A stretch of 64,000 nucleotides of DNA from NCBI GenBank assembly GCA_049299915.1, contig JBAQYG010000029.1, positions 194-64,193 on the forward strand. Direction: 5' to 3'. Numbering within the stretch: position 1 is the stretch's first letter; each line of letters opens with the position of its first letter. Origin of the DNA: Minisyncoccia bacterium. Lineage in GTDB: Bacteria > Patescibacteriota > Minisyncoccia > UBA6257 > JAVHQB01. The position numbers and the translations under genes are program-made. This document shows positions 1,864-25,738 of the stretch, piece after piece. The notes below the pieces were generated by a model. That model searched no databases. It was given only the letters and a program-made list of their open reading frames with translations, and had not been told where the DNA came from.

Positions 1864-1865
1864 AA

Positions 1866-3894: not shown

Positions 3895-3901
3895 ATTTAG
3901 A

Positions 3902-5590: not shown

Positions 5591-5620
5591 AACATTTTAA
5601 TTAGATCGCAAGACTTAGGG

Positions 5621-5845: not shown

Positions 5846-5848
5846 AAC

Positions 5849-6202: not shown

Positions 6203-6209
6203 TGAAAAC

Positions 6210-7829
6210 CTAATTATTTCTTTTTAATATAGGAATAAGGCTCTGACCATTCATTTCTGGTGGCTTAGAAATGCTCATTAATTCTAAAATGGTGGGAGCT
6301 ATATCTGCCAATGTACCAATAGAAAGTTTTTCTCTTTTTTGGCTTTCGGATGTAAATCGAGGGGTAGCCAATTTATACTCAGGATCTATTAACCAGAAGG
6401 GAACCGGATTTAAATTGTGTTGAGTATCAATTTCTCCAGTAGTAGGATTTATCATTTGCTCTAAATTACCATGATCAGAAGTAACTATAACAGTGTAGTT
6501 TACTGCCAGAGCCTTATTAATAATTTGATTGACTTTATCATCCATAATTTTAACAACATCTAAACCAGCTTGGAAATTGCCAGTATGAGCGATCAAATCA
6601 GAATTAGCATAATTCACCAAAATAAAGTCATAAATATTATCATCCATAGCTTGCAGGAGTCGTTCGTTAACTTCCCCAATGGCCAAAGAGGGAGATTCTT
6701 CCAAATGCCCAGTTTTAATAGAAGGTACTATTACCCAATGCTCACTAGGATATGGTTTTTCTTTAAGTCCATTGAAGAAATAAGTAACTGCAGCATATTT
6801 TTCAGATTCAGCAAGATGTAGTTGACGTTTACCACTATCAGAGAGCACGCGAGCTAAGGGATTATTAACTACATCAGGGTCATATAGATAGGGAGTAGTG
6901 AAATCTGGATGGTATTTAACCATTGAGAGTAAATGCAATCCTTCTAATTTTTTGGTTTCAAAATAATTAAAATGAGGCAAAGCAAAGGAGCTAAACAACT
7001 GTCGAGCCCTATCTTCCCTGAAATTTGTAAAAATTAAAGTATCATTACTTTGAATGGGGTGTGAGGGATTTTCTCCACCAAGAGAAACTGGATCGATGAA
7101 TTCATCGTTAATCCCTTGGTTATAATTATCTTTTAAGTATTCTTCCCAATTATTGGTTACCTTGGACCTGAGACCAGTGAGATTGTCGTAGCAAATTTTA
7201 GTCCGACCCCAATTCTGGTCTCTATCCATAGCAAAAAACCTTCCAGAGATTGTATTCACAATGCCTCCGTAAGGAGTTATTTTATCCTGTAATTCTTTCA
7301 AAAAAACAATTCCTCTTTTTGGACCAGAATCGCGACCATCTAGAAAAATATCTAAATAAGAATTTTTGATACCATTTTCAAAGGCCGCTCTAGTAGTAGC
7401 AATTAAATGATCTAAATCTCCATGAATAGGAGTATTGGTTAGGAGCCCAAGGATATGAAGAGAGCCATTATTTTTAGAGACATTTTTAAGGGTTTCCACT
7501 AGATTAGATTGTTTAAAAAATCCACCACTTCGAATGTCTGCGTTTATTTTAGTAGCATATTGTTTAACAGTTTTACCTGCACCGATAGTCATATGGCCCA
7601 CTTCACTACCACCAAGATCTTGCCATTCTAAGCCAACGGCATTACCACTTGCCTGAAGAGACCCAATAGGGTAATTGTTAAACCATTTTTCGAGTTGAGG
7701 TGTGCCAGATTGCCAAATAGGATTAGTAAAATTATTTTGTCCTATACCCCAACCGTCCAAAATTATTAAAAGTATTTTTTTAGGAGAACTCATATGATAC
7801 ATTTTAGCAGAAAATCCCTTTCCTTTCAA
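6210..7829 (-). CDS. gpmI: 2,3-bisphosphoglycerate-independent phosphoglycerate mutase.
   Basis: The ILDGWGIG N-terminal motif, the metal-binding SDHGN motif, and a length of about 540 aa. Confidence 0.9.
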   Translation of the reverse strand: MKGKGFSAKMYHMSSPKKILLIILDGWGIGQNNFTNPIWQSGTPQLEKWFNNYPIGSLQASGNAVGLEWQDLGGSEVGHMTIGAGKTVKQYATKINADIRSGGFFKQSNLVETLKNVSKNNGSLHILGLLTNTPIHGDLDHLIATTRAAFENGIKNSYLDIFLDGRDSGPKRGIVFLKELQDKITPYGGIVNTISGRFFAMDRDQNWGRTKICYDNLTGLRSKVTNNWEEYLKDNYNQGINDEFIDPVSLGGENPSHPIQSNDTLIFTNFREDRARQLFSSFALPHFNYFETKKLEGLHLLSMVKYHPDFTTPYLYDPDVVNNPLARVLSDSGKRQLHLAESEKYAAVTYFFNGLKEKPYPSEHWVIVPSIKTGHLEESPSLAIGEVNERLLQAMDDNIYDFILVNYANSDLIAHTGNFQAGLDVVKIMDDKVNQIINKALAVNYTVIVTSDHGNLEQMINPTTGEIDTQHNLNPVPFWLIDPEYKLATPRFTSESQKREKLSIGTLADIAPTILELMSISKPPEMNGQSLIPILKRNN

Positions 7830-7890: not shown

Positions 7891-8102
7891 ATAAGACAGG
7901 CTAAAATATTAGCCAGTTATAAACTTAATAGCAGAATGGCCAAGAGAAGATTGCTTTTTCCCGATATGAATTTGTTACCCACCATTTTTATCTTATTCGC
8001 TAACTCAATTTTCAGAGAAGAGGGAACTTATCCCGTCTGTTTTAGCGTCAGTATCTAGATAAAAATACTTTTAGCAATCAAAGTTGGCCATATTATACAT
8101 AT

Positions 8103-9629
8103 ATGGATATTTTATATTTTGTCTTAGGTGGAGTGGGGATAGTTTTGGGTGTCTTTATTGGTTACAAAGTTCGTCAAACCTTAGGTCAAAAACAAGCCAA
8201 TTCTATAGAAGCCAAGTTAAAGCTTAAAATAGAAGAAGTAAAAGGCGAAGCCAATAAAATTTTGTTGGAAGCAAAAACGAAATCACAACAATTAGTTGAA
8301 CAGTCTCTAGAAGAAAATTCGCAGCATAAAAAACAACTAATCGAACTGGAAAACAGGCTTATAAAAAGAGAAGAGCTTTTGGATAAGAGGACTGACGAAG
8401 TAGAAGCCAATGCTACTAAACTGGAAGCTAACTTAACTAAAGTGCAAGAAGTTCGAGCTGCTGTCGATGAACTACAAAAGCAAGAAGAAACCAAATTGGC
8501 TGAAGTAGCCGGCTTAAGCCAAGAGCAAGCTAAAGAAGCCCTTTTTGAGGAAATAAAGAAAAATCACGAAAGTGATTTGGCAGATAGCTTCAAAAAATTA
8601 GAAAAAGATCGCGAAGAGGAACTTAATATTAAGGCATCGGGTATTATAGCCACTGTTTTACAAAGATATGCCAGATCGGGAGTAAGTGAGGTCACCACTT
8701 CTTCAGTAAATATTCCTTCAGAAGATATTAAAGGTAAAATTATTGGTCGTGAGGGAAGAAATATTAGACACTTTGAACTATTAAGTGGAGTGGATGTTAT
8801 AGTAGACGAAACTCCTGATAGCATTACTATTTCTTCTTTTGATCCAGTAAGACGTGCTTTGGCTAAATTGGCTTTAGAAAAATTAATTGCCGATGGTAGA
8901 ATTCAACCAGCCAAAATAGAAGAAAAAATTCTAGAAGCTAAAAATGAAATTAACGAACAAATTAAAAAAGCAGGTGAGGAAGCTTGTTATGAGGTTGGTA
9001 TAGTGGGATTACCAAAAGAGATCATTCATTTACTTGGTCGTCTTAATTATAGAACAAGTTATGGCCAAAACGTCTTAACCCATTCTATAGAAGTAGCCAT
9101 CCTTTCAGGGATGATGGCATCAGAGTTGGGAGGTAATGTTGAATTGGCAAAAACGGCCGGGCTTCTTCACGATATTGGTAAATCAGTTGATCATGAATTA
9201 GAAGGTGCTCACCTAGAATTGGGCATTAAGATTATGCAAAAATATGGAGTAAGCCAAGATATCATCAACGCGATGAAATCTCATCATGAGGATTACCCTA
9301 TAGAAATATTAGAAGCCAACTTTGTAAACGCAGCTGACGCTCTATCTGCAGCTAGACCAGGAGCACGCAGAGAGAATATCGAAAACTACTTAAAACGTCT
9401 GGCTAATTTGGAAAAAATAGCTACAGATTTTAAGGGAGTAGAAAAAGCTTATGCCATTCAGGCAGGTAGAGAATTAAGAGTTTTTGTTACTCCTACTCAA
9501 ATAGATGATTATTCTGCCTTAAAGATGGCTAGAGACATTGCCAATAAGATAGAAACAGAAATCCATTATCCTGGAGAAGTGAAAGTGACTGTCATCAGGG
9601 AAACACGAGCTGTTGAATTTGCTAAATAA
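8103..9629 (+). CDS. rny: Ribonuclease Y.
   Basis: N-terminal TM helix, a long coiled-coil, a KH domain (IIGREGRNIRHFELLSGVDV) and an HD domain (LLHDIGK). Confidence 0.9.
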   Translation: MDILYFVLGGVGIVLGVFIGYKVRQTLGQKQANSIEAKLKLKIEEVKGEANKILLEAKTKSQQLVEQSLEENSQHKKQLIELENRLIKREELLDKRTDEVEANATKLEANLTKVQEVRAAVDELQKQEETKLAEVAGLSQEQAKEALFEEIKKNHESDLADSFKKLEKDREEELNIKASGIIATVLQRYARSGVSEVTTSSVNIPSEDIKGKIIGREGRNIRHFELLSGVDVIVDETPDSITISSFDPVRRALAKLALEKLIADGRIQPAKIEEKILEAKNEINEQIKKAGEEACYEVGIVGLPKEIIHLLGRLNYRTSYGQNVLTHSIEVAILSGMMASELGGNVELAKTAGLLHDIGKSVDHELEGAHLELGIKIMQKYGVSQDIINAMKSHHEDYPIEILEANFVNAADALSAARPGARRENIENYLKRLANLEKIATDFKGVEKAYAIQAGRELRVFVTPTQIDDYSALKMARDIANKIETEIHYPGEVKVTVIRETRAVEFAK

Positions 9630-9667
9630 ACTTGGGGCAATTCTTAAATCACGATTTGAAGCTCTTC

Positions 9668-9696
9668 TTGACATTATATTTTGCATTCCCTATACT
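9668..9696 (+). promoter_or_regulatory. Candidate sigma70 promoter (TTGACA, 17 nt spacer, TATACT) upstream of hup.
   Basis: Consensus -35 and near-consensus -10 hexamers with a 17-nt spacer, about 100 nt upstream of the hup ATG. Confidence 0.5.
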
Positions 9697-9795
9697 GAAA
9701 ATGTGTTAAATAAAGCCTTGGCGGCTTTCAATGGTCGATTCGCTAGCCTGAGGCTGAACGATAAATATTAATTAAAATTTTTATTAACTATATTT

Positions 9796-10068
9796 ATGAA
9801 CAAAGAAGATTTAATAGAAGCCATTGTTAATAAAATCAATTGCACCAAGAAAGATGCTCAGGATGCCTTAGAAACTATCATTGATTCCATTACCAAGGCT
9901 CTTTCAAAGGGTGATGATGTTGCTTTAACTGGTTTTGGTTCTTTCACTGTTAAACATAGAGCCGCCAGAAACGGTGTTAATCCTAAGACAGGAGAAAAAA
10001 TAAAGATTGCTGCTGCCAAGGTTCCGAAGTTCAAAGCTGGCAAAGGCCTTAAGGATGCCGTTAAATAA
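9796..10068 (+). CDS. hup: DNA-binding protein HU.
   Basis: A 90-aa protein with HU/IHF-family motifs (GFGSFTVKHRAARNGVNPKTGEKI). Confidence 0.85.
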   Translation: MNKEDLIEAIVNKINCTKKDAQDALETIIDSITKALSKGDDVALTGFGSFTVKHRAARNGVNPKTGEKIKIAAAKVPKFKAGKGLKDAVK

Positions 10069-10086
10069 ATAAATCAAATTAAAAAA

Positions 10087-10109
10087 CTCCCCAAGTTGGG
10101 GAGTTTTTT
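10087..10109. terminator. Bidirectional rho-independent terminator between the convergent hup and rpsA genes.
   Basis: Hairpin ctcccca/tggggag flanked by A-runs and T-runs. Confidence 0.7.
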
Positions 10110-10119
10110 GTATCTTCAC

Positions 10120-11262
10120 TTATTTAATTTCAGGTGGTACTTCAGGAGAGACTTCTTCTAAAGGAATCTCTTCAACCTTTTCTTCTTTAACAACTTTGGG
10201 TTTATCTGTTAAAGATAAGGTCATTTTTCTGCCAGTGGTATCTATACTCTTAATGAAGAATTCTTTAGTTTCTCCTAAAGTAATTTCATTTTTTATAGTC
10301 TCCCAGTTAGCAAATTCTGAAGAGGAACAGAAACCATTCACTCCTGGCTCTATTTCTATAAAGAGCCCTATAGGCAATACTTTCATAATCTTCCCAGAGA
10401 TTTTAGTGAGAAGAACATATCTTTCATTAATCTTATCCCAAGGATCAGCTTTTAAGGCTTTCAAGGATAGAGCCAAACGATCATTATCAGTGCTTATAAT
10501 CTTAGCTTGAATCTTTTGTCCTTCCTGAACATAGTCAGTAGGATTAGAAACTAGTTTGTAATCGAATTCGGAAATATGAATGAGTCCATCTACGGGTGGC
10601 TTACCGAATTGGATAAAGGCACCGAAGTCTACTATTTTAGTAATAGTTCCTTCAACCACTTCACCAACCTGATAATTAGCCATAAGGTCTTTATTCTGGT
10701 CGGATTGGATAAGCTTCTCAGAGAAGATAAGCTTATTTTCTTCGGAATTTACATCCAGAATTTTGACTTCAATTTCCTGACCTATAAATTTCTTTAATTC
10801 AACAAGAATCTTTTCCTTATCACTATTTTCTACCTTAGGATAGTGGGCAGTAGATAATTGAGAGACTGGTAAAAATCCAGTTAAGCCAACGTATTCTACC
10901 AAAAGTCCACCACGATTAGCTTCTTTTACTTTAACCTTAACACTATCTTTACTATCTTTGACGCCAGTAAGTACTCTCCAGGTCCTTTCTCTATTAACTT
11001 CTCTTAAGGAAAGTTCCATAAGCCCTTCTTCGTTAGCAAGGCTTAGGATTTTACCCGAGATAACCTCTCCGATTTTTAAATCCTTAATACTTTCACGAGC
11101 TTGAAGGAACTCGTAGCCACGCACTACTCCGATACCATAAATACCCAGGTCTAAATAAAGGACCCGGTTTTTCTGGTCTAGAACCTTACCCTCTATAACG
11201 CCGTTCTTTTGAGGGTATTTTTTTGCATCCACAGTGGATGTAAGGCTAATAACATTATCCAT
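10120..11262 (-). CDS. rpsA: 30S ribosomal protein S1, short form with about four S1 domains.
   Basis: Repeated S1-domain signatures (GxV..I...GxFV.L). Confidence 0.7.
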   Translation of the reverse strand: MDNVISLTSTVDAKKYPQKNGVIEGKVLDQKNRVLYLDLGIYGIGVVRGYEFLQARESIKDLKIGEVISGKILSLANEEGLMELSLREVNRERTWRVLTGVKDSKDSVKVKVKEANRGGLLVEYVGLTGFLPVSQLSTAHYPKVENSDKEKILVELKKFIGQEIEVKILDVNSEENKLIFSEKLIQSDQNKDLMANYQVGEVVEGTITKIVDFGAFIQFGKPPVDGLIHISEFDYKLVSNPTDYVQEGQKIQAKIISTDNDRLALSLKALKADPWDKINERYVLLTKISGKIMKVLPIGLFIEIEPGVNGFCSSSEFANWETIKNEITLGETKEFFIKSIDTTGRKMTLSLTDKPKVVKEEKVEEIPLEEVSPEVPPEIK

Positions 11263-11321
11263 GTTTGTTGTACCTTAACGTCTTTTAATTTAATTGCGTT
11301 AAGGGTTATTTTTTGGAGATG

Positions 11322-11393
11322 TGGACCCGGCGGGACTCGAACCCGCGATCTTTAGTATGCCATACTAACGCTTTTCCTCTAAGCTACGAGCCC
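11322..11393 (-). tRNA. tRNA-Ala(GGC); no CCA encoded.
   Basis: Reverse complement reads GGGCTCGTAGCTTAG...GGTTCGAGTCCCGCCGGGTCCA with a G3:U70 pair and anticodon loop ATGGCAT. Confidence 0.8.
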
Positions 11394-11513
11394 TTCCAAA
11401 ACACCTCATAATACATTAGTTTCGATTTAATTTCAAGGATGAAGAGCCTTTACCTGCTTTATTTTACCCCTTCTTTATGGTAGATTAGAAACAGATATAA
11501 GCAAAATTTCAAT

Positions 11514-11585
11514 GCCCCCATAGCTCAACGGATAGAGTAGATCCGTCCTAAGGATAAGATGAGGGTTCGATTCCTTCTGGGGGCA
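11514..11585 (+). tRNA. tRNA-Arg(CCT).
   Basis: Sequence GCCCCCATAGCTCAACGGATAGAGT...GGTTCGATTCC..TGGGGGCA with anticodon loop GTCCTAA. There is one G:A mismatch in the anticodon stem. Confidence 0.75.
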
Positions 11586-11617
11586 CTATCTGTATTATTG
11601 TGGGTATAAATTTATTT

Positions 11618-11709
11618 GGAGGGGTGTCTGAGTGGTTTAAAGAGACGGTTTCGAAAACCGTTGTCTCAGATTACTGGGACCGTGAGTTCGAATCTCACCC
11701 CCTCCGCCA
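11618..11709 (+). tRNA. tRNA-Ser(CGA), type II; CCA is encoded.
   Basis: Sequence GGAGGGGTGTCTGAGTGG...GTTCGAATCTCACCCCCTCCGCCA with anticodon loop TTCGAAA and a long variable arm. Confidence 0.85.
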
Positions 11710-11764
11710 AGTTTGGGAATAAAGTAAAATCTTAGAAAGAAGTATAGTTTATTCTATATTTAAA

Positions 11765-11790
11765 ACACTAGTGGAAGACTAGTGTTTTTA
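11765..11790. terminator. Rho-independent terminator after tRNA-Ser, also usable by dcd on the opposite strand.
   Basis: Hairpin acactag/ctagtgt with loop tggaaga, followed by a T-run and preceded by an A-run. Confidence 0.55.
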
Positions 11791-11818
11791 TATTCACGAT
11801 TATAAAAATAGGGCTTAT

Positions 11819-12529
11819 CTAACGATTGTATTTGGAGAAATGGCCAATGTCATGATCCTTATAGAGCTTGGGTAGCATATCGTCTGGGGTCCAATTCTTT
11901 TTTATTTCTTTTAAGCTCCCAAATGATTGGTATTTGTTATTACCCTTTAAATGATACTCGTCGGAAATCTCTACGGGAACAGTCGAATGGAAAATAATTT
12001 GGGCAATGCGTAAACCTACAGGTAAGGGGATAACGTTGTTACTAAAATTAGTGATTTCCATAGTCCAGCGATTTACGTAGCCAATATCTCCCCAACCAGC
12101 ACATTTGCATACAGCAATACCAATTCTTCCCAAAGAACTGCGAGCACGCATTTCGGTGGTCACTGCATCTAATTTTCCAGGGATACCATTCTTACCTCCA
12201 ATAAACTCGATAGTATGGGCCAAAATAGTTTCATTGGGTTCAAGCAAAATTACACAGTCATTTGGTTTTAAGTTATTAAAGGGGTTGAGCTTGGAACGAA
12301 GAATTTTTATGGGAACAGCTTCTTCAAGCTCTGAATACATTCTTCTGAGGGACTTGTCATAAAAAGGATTCACAGCTTGAATACGTTTTACCTGAGTTTG
12401 TCTAAAAAAATACTTTCCTAAACGGACATCATAACTAGTATTGGAAAGATTACCATTATCGAAGGGGTCGATAATAATATTTCCGGCTTTGTAATGTTTG
12501 AGGATTTCTGGTTTGGATAAAACACTCAT
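11819..12529 (-). CDS. dcd: dCTP deaminase / dUTPase-fold family protein, longer than canonical Dcd.
   Basis: N-terminal IIIDPF...SYDVRLG and central SSLGRIGIAV...GWGDIGY...WTMEITN motifs typical of Dcd. The product is 236 aa against about 190 aa for canonical Dcd. Confidence 0.65.
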   Translation of the reverse strand: MSVLSKPEILKHYKAGNIIIDPFDNGNLSNTSYDVRLGKYFFRQTQVKRIQAVNPFYDKSLRRMYSELEEAVPIKILRSKLNPFNNLKPNDCVILLEPNETILAHTIEFIGGKNGIPGKLDAVTTEMRARSSLGRIGIAVCKCAGWGDIGYVNRWTMEITNFSNNVIPLPVGLRIAQIIFHSTVPVEISDEYHLKGNNKYQSFGSLKEIKKNWTPDDMLPKLYKDHDIGHFSKYNR

Positions 12530-12585
12530 ATTTTTTATATTTTAATTAGGGCAATTGTATCATAGTTTCAGGGGATGCTCAAACG

Positions 12586-13083
12586 TTGCCGTTAGGCCTA
12601 TTTGGTGATTTAATAAGTTTAATGACTGAATCAAAACAAAAATTATTAGAGTTAGAAAAAGAAGGAATATATCTTTTTCATGGTTCACCAATCGAGAATT
12701 TAGAGGAGTTAAAACCGCATCAAGCTTATATAGTTTCGCGAGGGGGCAAAGATATGGTTAAAGACGGTGAGCCTTGCATCGCGGCTACTCCATATTTAGA
12801 AATAGCAATTTTTGCAGCCTTCATGTCAAAGAGTAAAAGTAACTTTTCTGTTTCAGCTACTAGCATGGAAGATGTTGTTATAAAATTGAAAGCAAGCGAA
12901 GAGGCCCTTGAAACTGCAAAAGGCCAAAAAGGATTTGTCTATGTTTTAGATAAAGCCGGATTTGTCCCAAGATCTGGAAATAATTATTGTATGGAATGGA
13001 GAAGTAGTGCTTCTGTTAAGCCATTATGGATGTTTGAAGTGAGCTATGAAGATTTACCAAAAAATATCGAAATCATTAAATGA
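12586..13083 (+). CDS. Hypothetical protein.
   Basis: A 165-aa ORF with a TTG start in the track (an in-frame ATG lies 12 codons downstream). No recognisable motif. Confidence 0.4.
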   Translation: MPLGLFGDLISLMTESKQKLLELEKEGIYLFHGSPIENLEELKPHQAYIVSRGGKDMVKDGEPCIAATPYLEIAIFAAFMSKSKSNFSVSATSMEDVVIKLKASEEALETAKGQKGFVYVLDKAGFVPRSGNNYCMEWRSSASVKPLWMFEVSYEDLPKNIEIIK

Positions 13084-13100
13084 TCTAGATCACCTTAATC

Positions 13101-13523
13101 ATGAAGAAAGCAATCAAAATAATTCAAAAAGATATTATCCAAATTTTTAGAAGTGGGGTAAAAAATAAACCCTTAAATTTGTGTTGCAAAGACAGTTGTA
13201 GTGAAGCTTCCCGATTGGTCGCAATTTGGATAAAAAGAAAATTTAAGAGAGCCTCAGTATTTATATTAAAAGGAGAACATAAACCTAAAAAATATCATGA
13301 CATCTTAATTACCCAGTTAGGTAATGAATTTTATTTAATAGATCCAACGGTTTGGCAATTTTTTAAGAACAAAAGAAGTATTTTGATAGGAAAATTTAAT
13401 AGTATAAATGAACTCTTATTACGTGCCAAGGAACTATATGGTGGCAAATGGGGAAACATAGAAAAATTTACAAATTTTAAAGAGGAAAAGCGATTAATTA
13501 AAATAATAAAAAGTAATTCGTGA
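13101..13523 (+). CDS. Hypothetical protein, possibly a papain-like / NlpC-P60-like fold given an ordered Cys, His, Asp pattern.
   Basis: A 140-aa protein with CCKDSC, then KYHDIL, then LIDP in that order. The fold assignment is weak. Confidence 0.4.
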   Translation: MKKAIKIIQKDIIQIFRSGVKNKPLNLCCKDSCSEASRLVAIWIKRKFKRASVFILKGEHKPKKYHDILITQLGNEFYLIDPTVWQFFKNKRSILIGKFNSINELLLRAKELYGGKWGNIEKFTNFKEEKRLIKIIKSNS

Positions 13524-13567
13524 CAAAAACTATTCTTCCGAAAGGCTATTAAAACAGTAATATAATT

Positions 13568-14215
13568 ATGCAGTTAGAGCTTTTACATAAAGAATACGAC
13601 TCATTACAGGCTTTATATGGTGACCCTTCACTAAAGTCTATTTATGGTGCAGGCTGCACTAAGAATCCCAAAATAATGTTAGTGTTTATGAATCCAACTG
13701 CTACAAACGTGTCAGCTAAAAAGAATTGGCAGGGATTAAGAGCTCCTTGGTTGGGAACTAAAAATATATGGAATATTTTCTATGAATTAAAATTATTATC
13801 CAAAGATTCATTTGATAGGATACAACATATGAGGCCCGAAGAATGGACTGCTGGTTTTGCCGATAGAGTGTATTCTGAATTAACTGATAAAGGAATATTC
13901 GTTACAAATCTAGCTAAATGTACTCAAGTAGATGCCAGACCATTAAAAAATGATATATTTAAAAATTATTTAGATTTAATACTTAAAGAAATTGATTCTA
14001 TTAATCCTAAAAATATAGTTAGTTTTGGCAATCAAGTTAGTTCAATTTTATTAGGAAAACCAATTTCTGTGGGTGATTATGTTGGTACTCAAAATGAGAT
14101 ATTGAAAATTGGCAAAAAACGATTTAAAGTTTATCCAACCTATTATCCAGTAGGGCAGGGAAGACGTAATATGCCATTAGCAGTAGGAAGAATAGAAAAG
14201 ATTTTGAAATATTAA
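13568..14215 (+). CDS. Uracil-DNA glycosylase-superfamily protein (SMUG/family-4-like).
   Basis: MLVFMNPTATN resembles the UDG-superfamily motif A (GMNPG-like), and the size fits. The C-terminal motif is not clearly recognisable. Confidence 0.4.
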   Translation: MQLELLHKEYDSLQALYGDPSLKSIYGAGCTKNPKIMLVFMNPTATNVSAKKNWQGLRAPWLGTKNIWNIFYELKLLSKDSFDRIQHMRPEEWTAGFADRVYSELTDKGIFVTNLAKCTQVDARPLKNDIFKNYLDLILKEIDSINPKNIVSFGNQVSSILLGKPISVGDYVGTQNEILKIGKKRFKVYPTYYPVGQGRRNMPLAVGRIEKILKY

Positions 14216-14261
14216 TAATTTCTAATGCAGTTCAATATTAAATATCAATTTCTTATTTTAT

Positions 14262-14963
14262 ATGAATAAATATATTTACTTAATTGGAAATCTAATATTT
14301 TTTATCATTTGGCTAGCCATTATTGTTACCAGAAAGGATCTGAGGTTTAAAATGGTAAAAACGAGCCTTATGGGTGGTGCCATGGGTATATTGTCAGAGT
14401 TCTGGTACTTTAAAGATTATTGGCGACCACCATCAATTTTAGGACAAGGAGTTACCTCTATTGAAGATTTTTTGTTCGGTTTCTTTATCACAGGAATCGC
14501 TGTTTCCATATATGACATAGTTTTTGGTTTTAAGAACATTTCAGGCGAGAAACCTCACAAATTATTATTCGGTTTATTATTTATCCTAGTAATGAGTTCT
14601 TTATTATTTTTAAGTACTTGGAAAGGAGTCAATTCAATTTTAGTAAGTGAAATAGCATTCTTACTTTGTACAGTAATAATAGTTCTAATAAGGAAAGACC
14701 TACTTAAACCCGCTCTAATATCGGGACTATTGCTGGTATTAGTTATTCTTCCGATTTATGTGCTGCTTTTCAACATTCTTTCTCCTAATTTCTGGCGCCT
14801 ATATTGGCTATTGAATCAAACTAAATTCGGTATTTTAGTTTTTGGCGACATTCCTTTAACCGAATTATTTTGGTACTTTTATTGGGGTTGTTTTTGTGGA
14901 GCAGGTCATAATTTTTATTCAGGTACTAAAAAAGTTCCTTTAATTAAGATTTCTGGGCAATAA
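14262..14963 (+). CDS. Polytopic membrane protein, possibly lycopene-cyclase-domain-like.
   Basis: About seven hydrophobic helices, and a PxxE-type motif (IPLTELFWYF) repeated weakly. The assignment is speculative. Confidence 0.45.
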   Translation: MNKYIYLIGNLIFFIIWLAIIVTRKDLRFKMVKTSLMGGAMGILSEFWYFKDYWRPPSILGQGVTSIEDFLFGFFITGIAVSIYDIVFGFKNISGEKPHKLLFGLLFILVMSSLLFLSTWKGVNSILVSEIAFLLCTVIIVLIRKDLLKPALISGLLLVLVILPIYVLLFNILSPNFWRLYWLLNQTKFGILVFGDIPLTELFWYFYWGCFCGAGHNFYSGTKKVPLIKISGQ

Positions 14964-15077
14964 GATTTCTAGTTCTTTCTACCATAAATTCCTAGCTAAT
15001 CCATATGATTATAAAAGAAATCTGAGTATAATTATAAGTAAGGTGGAGAATATTAGGTAAATTATTGTATAAATATA

Positions 15078-15701
15078 ATGATTTATAGAATTCAAAAAAT
15101 CAGTCGTTCAAAAATAGATAAAATGTATACGAAATCAATGAAAGAGTTAAATTCTTTTTTTCCAATCAATTGGACCCATAATCTCCCGAATCTAATTTTA
15201 GTTCCAGACAGAGAGACCATTAATGCTTTAAAAGGGCATAAAACAGAAGATTGGGTTGTTGGGTGGGCTGACCGCAATAAAGTGTACTTATTAGATGGTA
15301 AGAACTTTAATAAAGAAAGTAGCCATCAATATTCTGATGAGGAATTCTTTGTGTCTATAAAACATGAACTTGCACACTGTTTTTCTTATGTATTAGCCGA
15401 TTTCAGTAGAATACCTATTTGGCTTCTTGAAGGAATCGCTATATATGTTTCTGGTGAATATAAACAGCAAACGAAGCCTAAAAAATTTAAAAACTTTATT
15501 AATTATTTTGATAAAAGTGGGGAAGGAGTCTATTCAGAATCTGGTTTTGCGGTTATGTTTTTGATAGAGAAATATGGGAAAAAGAAACTTTTATCTTTAT
15601 TGAAATCGTTAAAAAAAGTTAAATCAAAAGCAGATTTTGCTAAATTGTTTAAATCTATTTATGGTTTCGAATTGTCCTATAAAAATTTTAGAGTAATTTG
15701 A
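15078..15701 (+). CDS. Putative zinc metallopeptidase-like protein (HExxH).
   Basis: An HELAH motif followed by a downstream Glu (LLEGIA), as in zincins. Confidence 0.4.
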   Translation: MIYRIQKISRSKIDKMYTKSMKELNSFFPINWTHNLPNLILVPDRETINALKGHKTEDWVVGWADRNKVYLLDGKNFNKESSHQYSDEEFFVSIKHELAHCFSYVLADFSRIPIWLLEGIAIYVSGEYKQQTKPKKFKNFINYFDKSGEGVYSESGFAVMFLIEKYGKKKLLSLLKSLKKVKSKADFAKLFKSIYGFELSYKNFRVI

Positions 15702-15846
15702 TTTTTTACCCTTCCTTTATTATCACCCATCTCCAGTAAGCTCTTATGGATGTAAAAAGAACCTAGCTATAATTTCCAAGAAGATAAGTAAAATTAAACA
15801 GATTATTAAATAAGTAAATTAACATCAATTAATAATAAATAATATT

Positions 15847-16020
15847 ATGACTATGTATTATGCAGGTCTAATGTATGTTGCAATAGCTATAGTTATATTT
15901 TTAGTTTGCCGAGTCCTGGTTCTATGGTATTGGAAGATTGATACAATAGTGTCATTGCTCCAAGATATCTCAGGCAATTTGTCTAATATAGTGCAAAAGA
16001 CAGAGCAAAAACAAGCCTAG
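15847..16020 (+). CDS. Small single-TM protein (57 aa); not in the ORF track because it is under 60 aa.
   Basis: ATG-initiated ORF MTMYYAGLMYVAIAIVIFLVCRVLVLWYW... lying in the AT-rich gap upstream of the RloC-like gene. Confidence 0.25.
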   Translation: MTMYYAGLMYVAIAIVIFLVCRVLVLWYWKIDTIVSLLQDISGNLSNIVQKTEQKQA

Positions 16021-16306
16021 TTGAATTTGAAATATTAGTATTTTGTCAGTGTTTTTATTTGCCCAAACCCTTGAGAGGGGTTATAATATAGGTGTTAAAA
16101 ATCTATAATTTTGTGGAATACAACATGCATCCTAGTGGTAATAATGAGGGTTGTTCCACTTATACTATGAGTCTGTTTTCAGAGCGTTATATTGAATTGG
16201 CCTAAATGGTCAATTTTTTTAATGCAATAATATATATAATTGACGGATTATAGTCATTATAATGAATTTAATAAATCGGTTAGAAAAATCGTAAAAAAAT
16301 AATCTT

Positions 16307-18604
16307 GTGGATAAATGGATACGATTACTGGAAATATTAAAAAACAAAATAATGAAAGTAATGATAAAAAAAATTGTAAAAATTAAAAATTATAGTGTAT
16401 TCCAAGATTTCTCTTGGAACTTGTTATTGCCTGATTTTAAAAAGGTTAATATTATTTATGGTTTTAACGGATCTGGCAAAAGCACTCTATCAGAGCTGTT
16501 TAGATTCTTAGAAATAAAAAATAAAGATTTTTTAAACACGGGAGTTGAGTTTGATATTGAAATTGACGGTGGCAATCACATAAAAAATACTGGTACTAAT
16601 TTGTTTACAAAAGATTATCAAATAAAGGTTTTTAATCAGAGTTTCGTAGGGGAAAACATTGATTTTATCCAAGGAAAAACTAAAAAAATTACCCTTTTTT
16701 TAGGAAAAGAAAATCAAGAATTACGAAATCAACTAGAAGATAAAACTAACAGAATTGATATCTTGGGTAAGGAAATAGAGGATAATCTCAATGAACAACA
16801 AGAAAAAGAAAAATCAATTGAAAAATCTTTTACGGAAATAGCTAAAACTATATCTGCCATAGAAACTGGTAATGCTAGAAGAAATTATAGGTCTCCAGAA
16901 GCTAAGCTATCTTTTAATTTATTGCAAAATAAACAAGAAATCGATGAGGCAGAATTAGAACAAAATAAAAAAATTTTAACTGCAGAAAAGAGAGAAAACA
17001 TTCCTGAATTATCTGCAAAAAAATATAAGATAGAAATCGAAACCATAAAAATAAATATAGATAGAATATTAAAAACAAAAATATTAATAAGTATTATAAA
17101 GAGATTAAAAGATAATTTTGACATCTCTCAATGGGTAGAATCCGGTCTGGCTATTCATAAAGATCATAATAGCCGAGTTTGCGAATATTGTCTTCAAAAA
17201 ATTCCAAATAAAAGGCAAAAGGAATTGGAAGAATATTTTAACGATGCAAATAAAAAATTGAAAACAGAAATTGATAGTCAAATAAAACTGATAGATGATT
17301 TATATTCAAATATAGAAAGCATTATTATACCAGACGAAAATAAATTTTATCCAGACAAAAAACAATCAATGATAACTTATAAGTCTATATTCATTAAAAA
17401 AAGAAATAATATATTATTGTTATTGGATGAATTCAAGTCTAGATTAGAAGAGAAGAAGGGTAGGCAATTTGAAAAATTGGTTTATAATCCGACTATAAAT
17501 AATGGGAACCAATTTGATGATGTATTAGATAGCATAGAAGCTTTAATCAAATCTCATAATGTTTTTAATGATAATTTGGAAAAAAATATAGATGAAGCTA
17601 GGAAAAAAATAGAAACACATTATTTATCTACCATATTTGATGAAGTGAAAAATTTTGAAGTAAATATCAAAGAATTAGAAGCAAAAGTTATAAAAGATAA
17701 GAAAAATAAAGATACAATTAGAGAAGAGGCGGACACTATTAGGGGCAAGATATCTAATGTGCACGCCTCTTGCGATGAATTAAATAGAAAAATACATCAA
17801 TTTTTAGGTAGAGATGAAATAAATTTAGAAGTTACAGCAGACCAACAGGGGTTTACCATTAAAAGGAAACTTAAGAATGCAACTAATTTAAGTGAAGGAG
17901 AAAAAACAGCTATTGCGTTTGTTTATTTTTTAGAATCTTTATCTGATAATGGATTAAATGCTAAAGACGAAATTATTGTGATAGATGACCCAGTATCAAG
18001 TTTTGATTCGAATTCATTGTTTCAAGCATTTGCTTTTATGAAAGAACTTATAGAAGACCCAAATCAAATTTTTATAATGACACATAATTTCCAATTTTTA
18101 AGATTAGTTTTAAATTGGCAAAAAGGAAATAATCGAGGAAAAGACTGCTCTAGTTATATGATAAATAACTATATGAATACCACTAATATTAGATGTGCAA
18201 GAATAGAAAAATTGGATAAATTATTAGAGTCGCATGAAACTGAGTACCATTATTTATTTAAATTATTGTATGAATTTAACACTGAGGCCGATGAAAAGAA
18301 AAATGATTTGGCCAGAGTTTATAATTTGCCTAATATTGCAAGAAAAGTATTAGAAACATATTTAATGTTCAGGGTACCAAGCAATCAAGGTACTTATGAT
18401 AAATTATATTCTTCCTATATTAAATTCGATAGAATTAAAAAGGCAGCGATTTATAAGTTTTCAAACGATCAATCGCACATAACTGGTGATGATTTTAGTC
18501 CTTCCCTTATACAAGAAACTAAAAATAATATCCGAGATTTATTGGATATGATACAACAAAATTCACAAGAGCATTATGAGATTATTGTTAGCTCGTTAGT
18601 ATAG
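16307..18604 (+). CDS. RloC/PrrC-like anticodon nuclease candidate (AAA_13 ABC-type ATPase).
   Basis: Three features support this:
- ABC ATPase motifs: Walker A GFNGSGKST, signature LSEGEKTAIAFVYFL, Walker B IIVIDDPVSSFD and H-loop MTHN.
- A CxxC zinc hook (CEYC) within the long central coiled-coil, as in RloC.
- A C-terminal nuclease-like motif NIARKVLETYLMFRVP followed by a conserved His (SHITGDD). Confidence 0.65.
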   Translation: MDKWIRLLEILKNKIMKVMIKKIVKIKNYSVFQDFSWNLLLPDFKKVNIIYGFNGSGKSTLSELFRFLEIKNKDFLNTGVEFDIEIDGGNHIKNTGTNLFTKDYQIKVFNQSFVGENIDFIQGKTKKITLFLGKENQELRNQLEDKTNRIDILGKEIEDNLNEQQEKEKSIEKSFTEIAKTISAIETGNARRNYRSPEAKLSFNLLQNKQEIDEAELEQNKKILTAEKRENIPELSAKKYKIEIETIKINIDRILKTKILISIIKRLKDNFDISQWVESGLAIHKDHNSRVCEYCLQKIPNKRQKELEEYFNDANKKLKTEIDSQIKLIDDLYSNIESIIIPDENKFYPDKKQSMITYKSIFIKKRNNILLLLDEFKSRLEEKKGRQFEKLVYNPTINNGNQFDDVLDSIEALIKSHNVFNDNLEKNIDEARKKIETHYLSTIFDEVKNFEVNIKELEAKVIKDKKNKDTIREEADTIRGKISNVHASCDELNRKIHQFLGRDEINLEVTADQQGFTIKRKLKNATNLSEGEKTAIAFVYFLESLSDNGLNAKDEIIVIDDPVSSFDSNSLFQAFAFMKELIEDPNQIFIMTHNFQFLRLVLNWQKGNNRGKDCSSYMINNYMNTTNIRCARIEKLDKLLESHETEYHYLFKLLYEFNTEADEKKNDLARVYNLPNIARKVLETYLMFRVPSNQGTYDKLYSSYIKFDRIKKAAIYKFSNDQSHITGDDFSPSLIQETKNNIRDLLDMIQQNSQEHYEIIVSSLV

Positions 18605-18772
18605 AGACATAAGTAGACAGAATTGCTTTTCTATAGAATTTGAACTTCGATGATTTCAAGAAAACATTAAAAAATCTTTCAAATTGATTGTTTTTATTGT
18701 TTCCTAATATATTATTTATTTATGCGTATCTTAAAAATTAATCCCTAATTGTTTTTGTGATACAATAGAGAC

Positions 18773-19162
18773 ATGACTTATATAGGAATACTACCGAACA
18801 TGATTTTATGGTGGTACTCTCAGGGGCTTAAGGAATGCCTCGATTTTTGTTTCGCTATTTTAGTGTTTTTAAAGAATACTTTTTCTGTTTCACTGAATCT
18901 CAAAACTTTATTTGCTCCTTGGAGAAGAACGACTAAACCATTAGAATCCAACTTAGTTGGTTTAAAGAATTTTGTTTTTGATCAAATTGTAGCTAGGGGA
19001 TTAGGGTTTCTTATTAGAACAGTCTCTTTAATCGCGTACCTTTTAATAACAGTTATTACTCTGCCAGTTCTTCTGCTAGCTATGGTGATTTGGATAACTC
19101 TACCTGTAATAGGCGTGACTTTTTTAATAGCGTGGGTTAAACATCTCTTAGAATGGATTTAA
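18773..19162 (+). CDS. Small integral membrane protein (129 aa).
   Basis: About four TM helices. Its stop overlaps the start of the downstream Clp-like gene by 10 nt. Confidence 0.5.
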   Translation: MTYIGILPNMILWWYSQGLKECLDFCFAILVFLKNTFSVSLNLKTLFAPWRRTTKPLESNLVGLKNFVFDQIVARGLGFLIRTVSLIAYLLITVITLPVLLLAMVIWITLPVIGVTFLIAWVKHLLEWI

Positions 19163-24108: not shown

Positions 24109-25545
24109 ATGAGTGAAGAAGAATTACAGGGCCATGATATTGATTTGAGCCGTTTGGGCCCAACAACAAGTATTCGTCTGCTAGACACCAATGTTCTTCT
24201 GGACGATGCAAACGCAATGGAGACTTTTGATGACAGTTGGGTCTTTGTCGGACTTCATACACTGGCAAGTCTGAATAAAATCATTGATAACAGAAATATC
24301 TATCCAAGGACATTTGTAGACGCTAGTTTCGCTATTCAAGCACTGTCTGCATATGAATCTAAAGGCGACCTCAAAAAGGGCGTACCTATGGGCAAAAGTC
24401 TTTTGTTTGTAAACTATGATGGTGAAGATTGGGATGGATTACCTGAGGAAACAAAGAAAGACAAAAAGGATAATACCTTAATTGGTATTGCCAATGGTTT
24501 GAGAAAAAGGCTGTGCGATAATGGTTTGAAACAAAGTGTGATTATTGTTTCTAATAATATCTACCTGAGGATGCAAGCCAATGCCTGTGGTCTTATTGCT
24601 CAGCCTTATAACCAAAGCATTAGAACCATGGAACAACTCTATTCTGGAATTGTGCGAGTTAACCTCAACAAGGATGAAGAACAAAGCATTCTTCCAGACT
24701 TTCGTAGACCAAATGGAGCCATAAGCATAGACGAACTACAAAAAACCCTTCATGGTAAAAAATTGGTTCCTAACCAATTTGTTTACCTTATGGCGGGATC
24801 CAAAAGACAGGCCATTGGTATCTACAATGAAAATGATAGAAAGCTTTCCTACGTCGATTTCAGTGCCCCAAAGCTTCCTCGTAGTTTGGACAAGCCTCTG
24901 GTAGCTCTTAATCCAGAACAGGCCTGTGCAATATATGCACTGAATGATATACATAAGAAAATAGTTTCAGTTGCAGGAGTTGCTGGAACTGGTAAGACTG
25001 TTACTGCCTATGACGCTGGTCTAAGACAAGTCATTGGCAAATTATATGAAAGACTCGTTATCTTTAAGCCAATCAGGGAGGCAAGTGATGCGGAATTATG
25101 TGCTCTTCCTGGTGGTGTAGACGACAAAATGGCCCCTTGGGTAGCTCCAATTATAGCAACTCTCAAGAGGCTCTCTTCAAAAGGACCTAAGGACAAAAAC
25201 CTGGAGCAACTAATAAAAACAGGGGTGATTCAGATCCGGCCTATCAATTATGCAAGAGGTGATTCTATCGAGAACTCTTTCATAATTGTAGAAGAAGCCC
25301 AAAATCTTACACGTAATGAAATTAAGCTTATTATTACGCGGGTAGGAAATGGGTCTAAGATTGTTCTCATTGGCGATCCAACACAATGTGACAATCCACG
25401 TTTGGACTTTGGTTCAACTGGTCTCACATTGGCCATAGAGAAATTCAAAGGACACAAACTGGGTGATGATGACGGTGTTTGTCATGTTACCTTGATTGAG
25501 TCAGAGAGATCTTCGGTAGCTGCTCTTGCTGCTAAGCTTCTCTAA
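24109..25545 (+). CDS. PIN-PhoH fusion ATPase (PhoH2/YlaK-like).
   Basis: N-terminal PIN domain (IRLLDTNVLLDD ... D residues) and C-terminal PhoH P-loop ATPase (VAGVAGTGKTVTA, IIVEEAQNLT, LIGDPTQCD). A strong SD (aaaggaggtag) precedes it. Confidence 0.8.
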   Translation: MSEEELQGHDIDLSRLGPTTSIRLLDTNVLLDDANAMETFDDSWVFVGLHTLASLNKIIDNRNIYPRTFVDASFAIQALSAYESKGDLKKGVPMGKSLLFVNYDGEDWDGLPEETKKDKKDNTLIGIANGLRKRLCDNGLKQSVIIVSNNIYLRMQANACGLIAQPYNQSIRTMEQLYSGIVRVNLNKDEEQSILPDFRRPNGAISIDELQKTLHGKKLVPNQFVYLMAGSKRQAIGIYNENDRKLSYVDFSAPKLPRSLDKPLVALNPEQACAIYALNDIHKKIVSVAGVAGTGKTVTAYDAGLRQVIGKLYERLVIFKPIREASDAELCALPGGVDDKMAPWVAPIIATLKRLSSKGPKDKNLEQLIKTGVIQIRPINYARGDSIENSFIIVEEAQNLTRNEIKLIITRVGNGSKIVLIGDPTQCDNPRLDFGSTGLTLAIEKFKGHKLGDDDGVCHVTLIESERSSVAALAAKLL

Positions 25546-25575
25546 AGTACTTGTATTTATCACAGGGCCCCATGC

Positions 25576-25601
25576 AACGCATGGGGCTTTTTCATACAAT
25601 A
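25576..25601 (+). terminator. Rho-independent terminator after the PIN-PhoH gene.
   Basis: GC-rich hairpin gccccatgc/gcatggggc with loop aacg, followed by TTTTT. Confidence 0.7.
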
Positions 25602-25738
25602 TTAGTTATTGACGATATTAATTGATTATGTTACGGTATTGATGCACTTATACAATTAAAAAGGAGGTGATTAAAGTACACGGTCTGGAAGTAATATCAA
25701 GGTATTTTTTTTATACAATCCGATATAGGAGGTAAGGA

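Follow-up and report, generated by a model that had tools for sequence, protein, structure and literature searches.

RloC proteins are defined by ABC-ATPase motifs, a CX2C motif in a helical insert, and a C-terminal Arg-X3-Glu-X36-52-His triad whose His is often preceded by Ser (PMC2610378). The characterized members are GkaRloC of Geobacillus kaustophilus and ACIAD0152 of Acinetobacter baylyi, and their family's biochemistry comprises a wobble nucleotide-excising tRNase, activation by a DNA-dependent ATPase, and responsiveness to Zn (PMC2610378, PMC3458546, PMC3874168). In GkaRloC, residues K44, C291, D572, R692, E696, and H737 have been tested experimentally (PMC2610378). The RloC papers cited here report tRNase activity and activation by DNA damage; no direct anti-phage protection is shown in them, and no phage infecting A. 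baylyi ADP1 was known.

Several other systems resemble RloC in part. PrrC, the tRNA-Lys anticodon nuclease of Escherichia coli, shares an abortive-infection logic with RloC. The APECO1_4465 and ERFG_01251 groups, found in prophages and defense islands and treated as separate clades by Anantharaman et al. (2013), fuse an ABC ATPase to a C-terminal HEPN domain. In Rad50/SbcC/SMC proteins, LmuB, and retron-associated ATPases, a long helical insert divides the ABC head, but these proteins lack a C-terminal HEPN domain and use separate nuclease or kleisin partners instead.

Here, we analyzed a 64-kb stretch of DNA (the window) from a Minisyncoccia (CPR) MAG, a host unlike those of the characterized RloC proteins. 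Profiles, motifs, and fold place one of its gene products in the RloC family, and we assign a probability of roughly 0.85 to the reading, made from sequence, that it is an intact single-gene abortive-infection/stress module consisting of an ABC head, a CxxC insert, and a HEPN anticodon nuclease. A sequence-only reading of this DNA had proposed such a standalone ABC-ATPase/zinc-hook/anticodon-nuclease protein in an AT-rich accessory region, and full-length profile matches, C-terminal matches, a HEPN fold, and an indel between strains all support that proposal.

Domain architecture of the RloC-type protein

The open reading frame at 16307..18604 on the + strand, 765 aa from a GTG codon, is present exactly as described earlier. 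The real start is most likely the ATG at 16361, which gives 747 aa, because profile matches open at residue 19 of the GTG-numbered protein, the identical protein in NCBI ("AAA family ATPase [Minisyncoccia bacterium]") is 747 aa long, and nucleotide homology to the nearest relative opens at 16346. Two numberings are therefore in use, one from GTG 16307 and one from ATG 16361 (M19), offset by 18 residues; M19 applies below unless stated otherwise. The features of the gene are as follows.

16361..18604, + strand: RloC-family gene, 747 aa from ATG 16361 (maximal ORF from GTG 16307)
16361..16705, + strand: ATPase head, N-lobe, residues 1-115, with Walker A G34..G39-K40-S41
16706..17806, + strand: helical (coiled-coil type) insert, residues ~116-482, ~365 aa, from the AF2 model
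17180..17191, + strand: CxxC zinc-hook motif, C274-E-Y-C277 (C292/C295 in GTG numbering), both Cys invariant in 44/44 homologues
17807..18211, + strand: ATPase head, C-lobe, with signature LSEGE (S511, E514), Walker B D542-D543, and H-loop H575, all invariant in 44/44 homologues
18212..18601, + strand: predicted C-terminal HEPN-type anticodon-nuclease domain, residues ~618-747
18341-18343, 18353-18355, and 18476-18478, + strand: putative catalytic residues R661, E665, and H706 (the last within S705-H706)

A search with Pfam AAA_13, the profile named in the sequence-only reading, gave a full-length match (profile positions 2-712 of 713; E = 1.3e-131; 441 bits, the cut-off being 36). The PADLOC profile PDC-S06 also matched over its full length (E = 2.2e-214; 712 bits), and proteins labeled PDC-S06 by PADLOC are those labeled RloC by DefenseFinder (PMC11811056, supplementary file 6). 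The earlier reading had staked the RloC assignment on the nuclease region, and the C-terminal 152 aa alone match the PDC-S06 profiles (8e-49) and AAA_13 (6e-20), in each case in the C-terminal part of the profile, which bears the assignment out. All JGI-named homologues are labeled "wobble nucleotide-excising tRNase." A sequence search of the PDB retrieved only ABC transporters with the whole protein and nothing significant with the C-terminal profile. For the deposit, named only "AAA family ATPase," these results supply a family name, that of the RloC-type anticodon nucleases.

The ABC-head, CEYC, and R-K-x-L-E motifs and the downstream His listed previously were all found. In GTG numbering, they are Walker A G52-FNGSGKST, the signature LSEGEKT at 528, Walker B IIVIDDP at 556, the H-loop T-H593-N, the zinc-hook motif C292-EY-C295, and the ACNase motif NIA-R679-KVL-E683 with S723-H724 further downstream. 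We aligned 44 homologues with identities to the query down to 20%. Invariant in all 44 are G34, G39, and K40 of Walker A (G/G/K), the two Cys residues, S and E of the signature, DD of Walker B, His of the H-loop, and the Arg and His of the triad. The acidic residue of the triad is E or D throughout (44/44), and in 43 homologues the triad His is preceded by Ser. On sequence grounds, these motifs are not due to chance because they are invariant or nearly so across homologues as distant as 20% identity.

All three defining features of RloC are thus present: the ABC-ATPase motifs, a CX2C motif between Walker A and the signature, and a C-terminal triad (R661-x3-E665-x40-S705-H706) that fits R-X3-E-X36-52-(S)H. 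The domain order is also that of RloC, with an ABC-ATPase head, a helical insert carrying the CxxC, and a C-terminal ACNase. The tested GkaRloC residues K44, C291, D572, R692, E696, and H737 are colinear with K40, C274, D542, R661, E665, and H706 of the query; the R-to-E (4) and E-to-H (41) spacings are the same, and the D-to-R spacing is 120 in GkaRloC versus 119 here. The query is shorter than GkaRloC (747 versus 804 aa). This comparison uses published residue numbers, and the link to RloC rests on them together with the profiles and third-party labels.

In the AF2 model, the N-lobe is beta-rich and matches Rad50/SMC heads, and Foldseek matches comprise Rad50, cohesin, Smc5/6, LmuB, and retron SMC-like ATPases. 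Weak ABC-transporter matches span exactly the C-lobe segment, 17807..18211. The C-terminal domain has a confident HEPN fold, the RNase fold of the RloC family. The insert (pLDDT 87) contains long helices at residues 116-167, 295-319, 331-367, 382-404, 406-424, 426-464, and 467-482, and the CxxC, reminiscent of the Rad50 zinc hook, lies in a nonhelical loop between helices 253-269 and 283-292. Since many separate helices make up the insert and the CxxC lies away from its exact midpoint, a Rad50-style two-helix hook remains putative.

The description of the C terminus as PrrC-type holds in part. Kinship with PrrC exists at the level of motif and fold: both proteins combine an N-terminal ABC-ATPase domain with a C-terminal HEPN-type RNase and an Arg-x3-Glu...His triad, and some members of the query family lie between hsd genes, as prrC does. 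In profile searches, however, neither the C-terminal 152 aa alone nor 23 homologous slices matched PrrC at E ≤ 0.01, and the whole protein matched the PADLOC PrrC profile only at 1.9e-7, through a stretch opening in the ABC C-lobe. PrrC architecture and R-M linkage also differ from those of the query. PrrC is ~400 aa long without an insert of the coiled-coil/zinc-hook type, whereas the query has 747 aa with an insert of ~365 aa, and the PrrC Walker A ends in Arg and is accompanied by a PrrC box (PMC3458546), whereas the query reads GFNGSGKST followed by Leu. The prrC gene is always located within a type Ic hsd locus, by which PrrC is silenced, whereas the query has no hsdM, hsdS, or hsdR in the window and its neighbors are unrelated. 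The APECO1_4465 and ERFG_01251 groups resemble the query in the fusion of an ABC ATPase to HEPN; the ERFG_01251 group is described as having a classical Rx4-6H HEPN domain. A Phytobacter homologue used as a DNA bridge into E. coli reached four genomes, annotated "AAA family ATPase," and APEC O1 was not among them.

Relatives and restriction-modification linkage

The two closest relatives share 63% and 50% identity with the query, members that fall outside the query's 50%-identity cluster share 25 to 42%, and any named or cultivated-organism homologue shares only 25 to 34%. The family is a known one: it is large, with ~1,300 clusters at the 50% identity level, occurs promiscuously across the phylogeny, and has a place in defense-system catalogues already. 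The query is otherwise an ordinary member of it. Relatives occur on 147 viral or prophage contigs. Neither Geobacillus nor Acinetobacter is found among the best 80 related loci or among the profile-search matches listed. An RloC homologue had been expected to be unusual in a small-genome CPR bacterium. This expectation is not supported: of the best 80 species-representative loci, at least 8 belong to other CPR lineages (Saccharibacteria, Absconditabacterales, Gracilibacteria, Paceibacterota, Nomurabacteria, and unclassified Patescibacteria).

No homologue of type I R-M subunits (Hsd) or of RhuM was found by tblastn in the 64-kb window. The earlier statement that no R-M genes are linked to the locus is thereby confirmed for type I subunits and RhuM over 64 kb and, by Pfam, for the immediate neighbors, and its confirmation is limited to these. 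Among the best 80 related loci, 16 are type I linked, in the order hsdM-hsdS-gene-hsdR, and RhuM and recombinases recur nearby; linkage of RloC to R-M in the literature is 8/72 (PMC2610378). The query and its relatives thus show the RloC pattern of usually being unlinked to R-M, with occasional insertion into type I/III loci, and the query is like RloC in being a single-gene, laterally mobile, AT-rich module. The nearest relative of the query, at 63% identity, is part of an operon of the order hsdM-rloC-hsdS, and the 50%-identity relative lies in a defense island. The solitary copy in the query genome, set beside a nearest relative inside an R-M operon, fits the published idea that an internal switch makes RloC independent of an R-M partner and easier to transfer laterally.

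A strain-variable block of AT-rich DNA

Comparison with related contigs defined the following features around the gene.

15790..18738, no strand assigned: block of ~2.95 kb that varies between strains and comprises the mini-ORF, the upstream spacer, and the RloC gene; contigs of ~95% identity lack it
14204..18752, no strand assigned: larger block absent from contig L087 (GCA_026395635.1), a more distant syntenic relative
15701..15790, + strand: 3'-terminal relic of a UDG-family gene, frameshifted, 75.7% nucleotide identity to positions 194-266 of contig L084
15847..16020, + strand: 57-aa hydrophobic mini-ORF, no Pfam match

In contigs L084 and L086, blastn homology jumps from ~15774 to 18739 of the window, with 94.9% identity over 5.4 kb downstream. 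In L087, homology covers 13559-14203 and resumes from 18753, and the gene order is DCD-UDG-small membrane protein-ClpB-like-PIF1; by neighbor domains, the larger block also encodes an MA-type peptidase and a membrane protein with a lycopene-cyclase domain. The GC content of the RloC gene and strain-variable block is 26.7%, versus 34.4% for the window. The accessory status suggested earlier is borne out by the indel against near-identical strains, the low GC content, and the synteny of related contigs, and we conclude that this genome acquired the gene horizontally, as an insertion that varies between strains. Single-gene, putatively self-regulated modules of the abortive-infection type do occur in ultra-small CPR/Patescibacteria genomes and are gained and lost between near-identical strains.

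The spacer at 15702-16306 had been described as AT-rich and containing only a mini-ORF. It is AT-rich (28% GC), but it also contains the UDG-family relic: L084 194-266 encodes ...FFILPLYHPSPASPYG..., and the counterpart in the window is FFTLPLLSPISSKLLWM followed by a stop, with a 1-nt indel. No Rfam family or tRNA was found in the spacer, its promoter-like matches are at the level of shuffled sequence, and it has one terminator-like hairpin (16194-16216). We considered the 57-aa ORF as a conserved partner and rejected it because no homologue lies beside related loci (no tblastn match near any of 88), and it is missing from the nearest relatives' operons; the mini-ORF is probably not a functional partner.

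Neither hsdM nor hsdS of the operon around the nearest relative has left a relic in the flanks, and no integrase is present as a signature of integration. The sole candidate for such a signature is an imperfect direct repeat of 17 nt, at 15939-15955 and 18758-18774, whose second copy lies at the indel junction; repeats this good occur often in this AT-rich DNA (11 families in 8.4 kb).

Proposed mechanism and alternative readings

Unlike GkaRloC and ACIAD0152, which have been characterized, the query has a predicted activity, trigger, and target, and we infer its enzymatic activity, tRNA target, trigger, and anti-phage role by analogy with these G. kaustophilus and A. baylyi enzymes. The protein would dimerize, and zinc-hook contacts would hold the RNase silent. 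DNA ends, possibly from phage-induced breakage, would bind the ATPase heads, and ATP hydrolysis would then free the nuclease. The Arg-Glu-His site (R661/E665/H706) would next cut tRNA anticodon loops, by which GkaRloC excises the wobble nucleotide; translation would halt, and infection would be aborted. As the window contains no type I R-M partner, the protein would depend on its internal switch.

It is unlikely that this RloC-like ABC-HEPN protein acts on another RNA (a different tRNA, rRNA, or mRNA) or cleaves in another mode, such as a single incision. CPR bacteria may have a differing set of tRNA modifications, and the cut site of GkaRloC itself depends on modification of the wobble base. 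In the same direction point the identity of 25 to 34% to named or cultivated homologues and the wide variation in targets of HEPN RNases (PMC3710099). The catalytic residues and their spacing are nevertheless those of GkaRloC, and the entire C-terminal domain strongly matches RloC-type profiles. The chance that the protein is instead a Rad50/SbcC/SMC-type ATPase of DNA repair or chromosome maintenance, and not a nuclease toxin, seems next to negligible. Its head does find its best solved Foldseek matches in the heads of cohesin, Rad50, and Smc5/6, NCBIfam gives only generic ABC and SMC-related matches, and genes with DNA-metabolism domains surround the locus (UDG and dCTP deaminase upstream and a PIF1 helicase downstream). 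However, sequence similarity to Rad50/SMC-like ATPases is confined to the ABC motifs, Rad50/SbcC proteins lack the HEPN fold with invariant R/E/H residues that forms the C terminus of the query, neighbor domains reveal no adjoining Mre11/SbcD-type partner, and the relatives lie in R-M and defense-island settings. The gene is also missing from near-identical strains, unlike a core repair gene.

We also weighed whether the query might be the ATPase part of a multigene defense system (Lamassu LmuB, PARIS AriA, or a PrrC-like protein silenced by R-M) with its partner elsewhere in the genome. Weaker PADLOC matches to LmuB (1.3e-12), PrrC (1.9e-7), and AriA (3.4e-4), the type I R-M operon around the nearest relative, and the room left in the literature for R-M regulation in trans speak for this arrangement, which we nonetheless consider highly improbable. 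Those matches are 100 to 200 orders of magnitude below that of PDC-S06 and map to the ABC head, whereas the query has an effector domain of its own. Neighbor domains show no adjoining LmuA/AriB-type partner gene, no neighbor is common to all 80 of the best related loci, no type I subunit lies within 64 kb, and hsd deletions in A. baylyi left RloC behavior unchanged. A self-contained RloC-type anticodon nuclease thus remains our preferred reading.

Two separate ideas, both doubtful, concern the regulation and role of such an RloC-type protein. In an episymbiotic CPR cell with a minimal genome, an RloC that stands alone might serve as a DNA damage/persistence switch instead of a phage defense. 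The other concerns a conserved W258-x3-G262-x3-H266 just upstream of the CxxC, for which we found no discussion in the RloC papers cited here. Together with the CxxC, it might form a zinc knuckle with a His ligand in cis, differing from the Rad50-style hook, which consists of two CxxC pairs only. If so, the published model of RloC switching between intramolecular and intermolecular hooks would need revision.

Family membership and predicted fold

The sequence-only reading, which saw here a standalone RloC-type gene, proved essentially right on the evidence of profiles, motifs, a C-terminal test and synteny: this is an intact RloC-family anticodon nuclease gene in a Minisyncoccia (CPR) genome. 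Its supposition of a CPR-like host was also borne out, as Minisyncoccia is a class within Minisyncoccota, the new name of Patescibacteria/CPR (PMC12281837). The open reading frame and every motif that it listed (ABC ATPase, CxxC, R-K-x-L-E-x-Y and downstream His) were found in place.

Features of the RloC-family gene and protein (residues in GTG numbering)
16307..18604, + strand: maximal RloC-family open reading frame, 765 aa from GTG
Residues 52-60: Walker A, GFNGSGKST
C292-E-Y-C295: CxxC
Residue 528: LSEGEKT
Residue 556: IIVIDDP
T-H593-N: H-loop
NIA-R679-KVL-E683-TYLMF: R-K-x-L-E-x-Y motif
S723-H724: downstream Ser-His

The true start is probably the ATG at 16361, giving 747 aa, because the Pfam and PADLOC profile alignments open at residue 19 (GTG numbering), nucleotide similarity to the closest relative begins at 16346, and the identical NCBI protein ("MAG: AAA family ATPase [Minisyncoccia bacterium]", on a 64,660-bp contig) also has 747 aa. 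Hereafter, we use M19 numbering (GTG numbering minus 18).

In the HMM check that had been proposed, Pfam AAA_13 covered the protein end to end (profile positions 2-712/713; 441 bits; E = 1.3e-131), as did PADLOC PDC-S06, a candidate single-gene defence family (712 bits; E = 2.2e-214). Since identical proteins (EJR26746.1, EJR26942.1 and others) are called PDC-S06 by PADLOC and RloC by DefenseFinder (PMC11811056, supplementary file 6), PDC-S06 is the RloC family under another label. The NCBIfam profiles gave no specific family match; the JGI-named homologues (∼20, mostly 34-40% identical to the query) are all annotated as "wobble nucleotide-excising tRNase."

The three criteria that define RloC include PrrC-like ABC-ATPase motifs and a C-proximal Arg-X3-Glu-X36-52-His triad, in which Ser frequently precedes the His (PMC2610378). 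The query triad is R661-x3-E665-x40-S705-H706. The residues mutated experimentally in Geobacillus kaustophilus RloC (GkaRloC), K44, C291, D572, R692, E696 and H737 (PMC2610378 and later Kaufmann laboratory work), are colinear with K40, C274, D542, R661, E665 and H706 of the query, with the same R-to-E (4) and E-to-H (41) distances and a D-to-R distance of 119 versus 120 in GkaRloC. An alignment of 44 homologues, down to 20% identity, shows no variation in the Gly/Gly/Lys of Walker A, the two hook cysteines, the Ser and Glu of the signature, the Asp-Asp of Walker B, the His of the H-loop, R661 or H706; the triad acid is Glu in 32 and Asp in 12, and Ser precedes the triad His in 43 of the 44. 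The ATP-binding and ATP-hydrolysis residues, those of the hook and those for RNA cleavage are all intact and conserved.

An AlphaFold2 model built on the 44-homologue alignment was confident (mean pLDDT, 87). In it, a helical insert of ∼365 residues (∼116-482) splits a beta-rich ABC head, the CxxC lies in a short nonhelical loop between helices 253-269 and 283-292, and an all-helical domain follows the head. Foldseek searches of the PDB matched the head and insert to cohesin, Rad50, Smc5/6, Lamassu LmuB and retron-associated SMC-like ATPases (E values of 1e-6 to 1e-3), and found no close solved structure over the full length. The C-terminal 152 residues, modeled separately (pLDDT, 91; pTM, 0.85), agree with published work that places the nuclease domains of RloC and PrrC in the HEPN superfamily (PMC3710099).

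The C-terminal test named beforehand came out in favor of RloC. The isolated domain matched the C-terminal part of PDC-S06 (E = 8e-49) and AAA_13 positions 593-712 (E = 6e-20), and both profiles were matched by all 24 C-terminal slices tested, whereas the PADLOC PrrC profile gave no match at E ≤ 0.01. The weak PrrC match of the full protein (1.9e-7), whose aligned stretch opens in the ABC C-lobe, is therefore unsupported by the nuclease domain alone. This outcome fits the original discovery of the triad common to RloC and PrrC through "manual adjustment" (PMC2610378). The evidence for membership in RloC is good; the kinship with PrrC extends to motif and fold only, and the query fails the architectural and genomic criteria of PrrC.

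Eight residues ahead of the invariant C274-x2-C277 lies W258-x3-G262-x3-H266 (window 17132-17191, residues 258-277), with G262 invariant, W258 present in 43 and H266 in 38 of the 44 homologues. H266 may be an extra zinc ligand or a structural knuckle. This motif, the sole mildly new detail, might bear on zinc binding by the hook.

Genomic setting and strain variability

Neighboring genes in the window, in order
Minus strand: dCTP deaminase-like protein
Two unknown ORFs
UDG-superfamily protein
Lycopene-cyclase-domain membrane protein
MA-type peptidase
57-aa ORF, followed by the RloC gene
129-aa membrane protein, after the RloC gene
ClpB-like AAA+ protein
PIF1 helicase

The sequence-only reading saw no linked restriction-modification genes, and this was confirmed for type I subunits and RhuM: homologues of HsdM, HsdS, HsdR and RhuM were absent across the 64 kb. 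The GC content is 26-30% over 13-19 kb (26.7% in the RloC gene) versus a window mean of 34.4%. The gene was also AT-richer than its flanks in all six relatives checked (L082, L081, L001, L003, L004 and L007), for example, 41% versus 51% GC in L004 and 31% versus 42% in L007.

The Parcubacteria MAG L087 (GCA_026395635.1), whose ClpB-like protein is 81% identical to that of the window, has the gene order DCD - UDG - small membrane protein - ClpB-like - PIF1; compared with it, two additional blocks (∼12658-13558 and ∼14204-18752) are present in the window. Across up to 5.4 kb downstream, DNA identity is ∼95% in four short contigs of other samples. Two of them, L084 and L086, reach upstream; in these, homology skips from window ∼15774 to 18739, and the 3′ end (...LYHPSPASPYG..., FFILPLYHPSPASPYG) of an intact UDG-family gene directly precedes the small membrane-protein gene. 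Window 15701-15790 is a frameshifted relic of that 3′ end and forms the left edge of the indel. The homology jump and the retained relic show that near-identical strains differ by an indel of ∼2.95 kb, which comprises the mini-ORF and the RloC gene. The gene is horizontally acquired and strain variable, and the synteny check upheld the accessory location.

The upstream spacer (15702-16306) is AT-rich as described; the claim that it contains only a mini-ORF gave way to the UDG relic. No Rfam families or tRNAs were found in it. No related locus has an equivalent of the 57-aa ORF next to it, and this ORF is unlikely to be a partner of RloC.

A 17-nt imperfect direct repeat (TGATACAATAGTGTCAT / TGATACAATAGAGACAT) flanks the RloC gene at 15939-15955 and 18758-18774, the second copy sitting exactly at the indel junction. 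Such repeats being frequent in the surrounding AT-rich DNA, this one may be a scar of recombination or may have arisen by chance. The block at 12658-13558 holds most of two ORFs (12586-13083, 165 aa; 13101-13523, 140 aa) that had no Pfam match. A three-tRNA cluster (Ala-GGC, Arg-CCT and Ser-CGA; 11321-11709) lies ∼1 kb upstream of this block (12658), the first variable one, and ∼1.3 kb before the GC drop at ∼13 kb; no integrase or att-like repeat tying it to the insertions was found. Farther downstream, a PIN_4/PhoH-type ATPase gene (24120-25605) resembles an allelic replacement: contigs (L083) that are ∼95% identical in DNA on either side lose nucleotide similarity within. Their protein is only 32% identical to that of the window, and the L083 and L087 alleles share 96% identity with each other.

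Alternative readings and probable mode of action

An RloC-like protein with a different RNA target or cleavage mode is an unlikely but real alternative, since the query is only 25-34% identical to any named or cultivated-organism homologue. Far less probable is a component of a multigene system (LmuB, AriA or a PrrC-like protein with a restriction-modification silencer in trans): LmuB/AriA/PrrC-type profiles score far more weakly, no neighbor is universally conserved, and the effector is built into the protein. A plain Rad50/SMC-type repair ATPase is the least credible: the HEPN domain is conserved, there is no adjacent Mre11/SbcD partner, and sister strains lack the gene, all of which contradict it.

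RloC is usually interpreted as an anti-phage protein and appears in catalogues of abortive-infection systems. The Kaufmann laboratory papers propose this role rather than demonstrate it. In them, GkaRloC is a tRNase whose first cut falls 3′, and whose second falls 5′, of the wobble nucleotide; R692A, E696A and H737A in the triad abolish activity and toxicity, and Walker A and Walker B mutants lose activation. The nuclease is switched on by ATP hydrolysis and DNA, preferably linear, and the zinc-hook mutation C291G makes it constitutive and independent of both. An inducer of DNA double-strand breaks activates native RloC of Acinetobacter baylyi, with no dependence on the unlinked hsd genes, and the same authors argue that an internal switch makes a restriction-modification silencer unnecessary and eases lateral transfer. 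By analogy, we infer the activity, substrate and trigger of the window protein, which would work like the characterized enzymes with an internal switch in place of the silencer. The solitary window copy, with its nearest relative still within an hsd operon, fits this picture.

Relatives of the gene

Searched exhaustively with HMMER, 1.84 billion cluster representatives yielded 1,291 clusters at E ≤ 1e-30, and relatives were present in at least 353 species when one genome per species was scanned. Type I restriction-modification subunits lie within 8 kb of the gene in 16 of the best 80 species-level loci (of at least 353 species), usually in the order hsdM-hsdS-gene-hsdR, a placement known for rlo ("restriction-linked ORF") genes and prrC. 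Other repeated finds near these best 80 loci are RhuM, serine recombinases and tyrosine integrases. Among the matches listed, the closest relative (63% identity) is flanked by hsdM and hsdS, with a gap of 3 bp. The next (50%), L081, is on a very AT-rich 631-kb contig (flanks, 24% GC) in a dense defence island (307-7698 and 10255-17010) that holds an SNF2/PLD helicase, an MmeI-type methylase, an NYN-domain protein, RhuM/Fic, a HigB-like toxin, Bro-N and two N6/N4 methylases. Relatives on IMG/VR viral or prophage contigs (n = 147) all have ≤32% identity. The mix of taxa among the top matches (Saccharibacteria, Verrucomicrobiota, Endomicrobiales, Acidobacteriota, Nitrospirota and others) indicates frequent lateral transfer.

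The expectation that RloC would be unusual in CPR did not hold, as at least 8 of the best 80 species-level loci are in CPR genomes; one Saccharibacteria copy has an hsdR-hsdM-376-aa ORF-gene arrangement, and another copy adjoins a serine recombinase. Our literature search found no paper on RloC in Patescibacteria. The find is unsurprising to a specialist; the identification is useful for annotation, and the locus is a neat case of a single-gene defence module gained or lost in ultrasmall bacteria.

In L007 (Absconditabacterales; 4792-6972) and L063 (Gracilibacteria; 8001-10142), the homologues are broken into short ORFs under translation table 11, and tblastn matches span nearly the whole query. 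This fragmentation fits a reassignment of UGA (code 25) in the two lineages.
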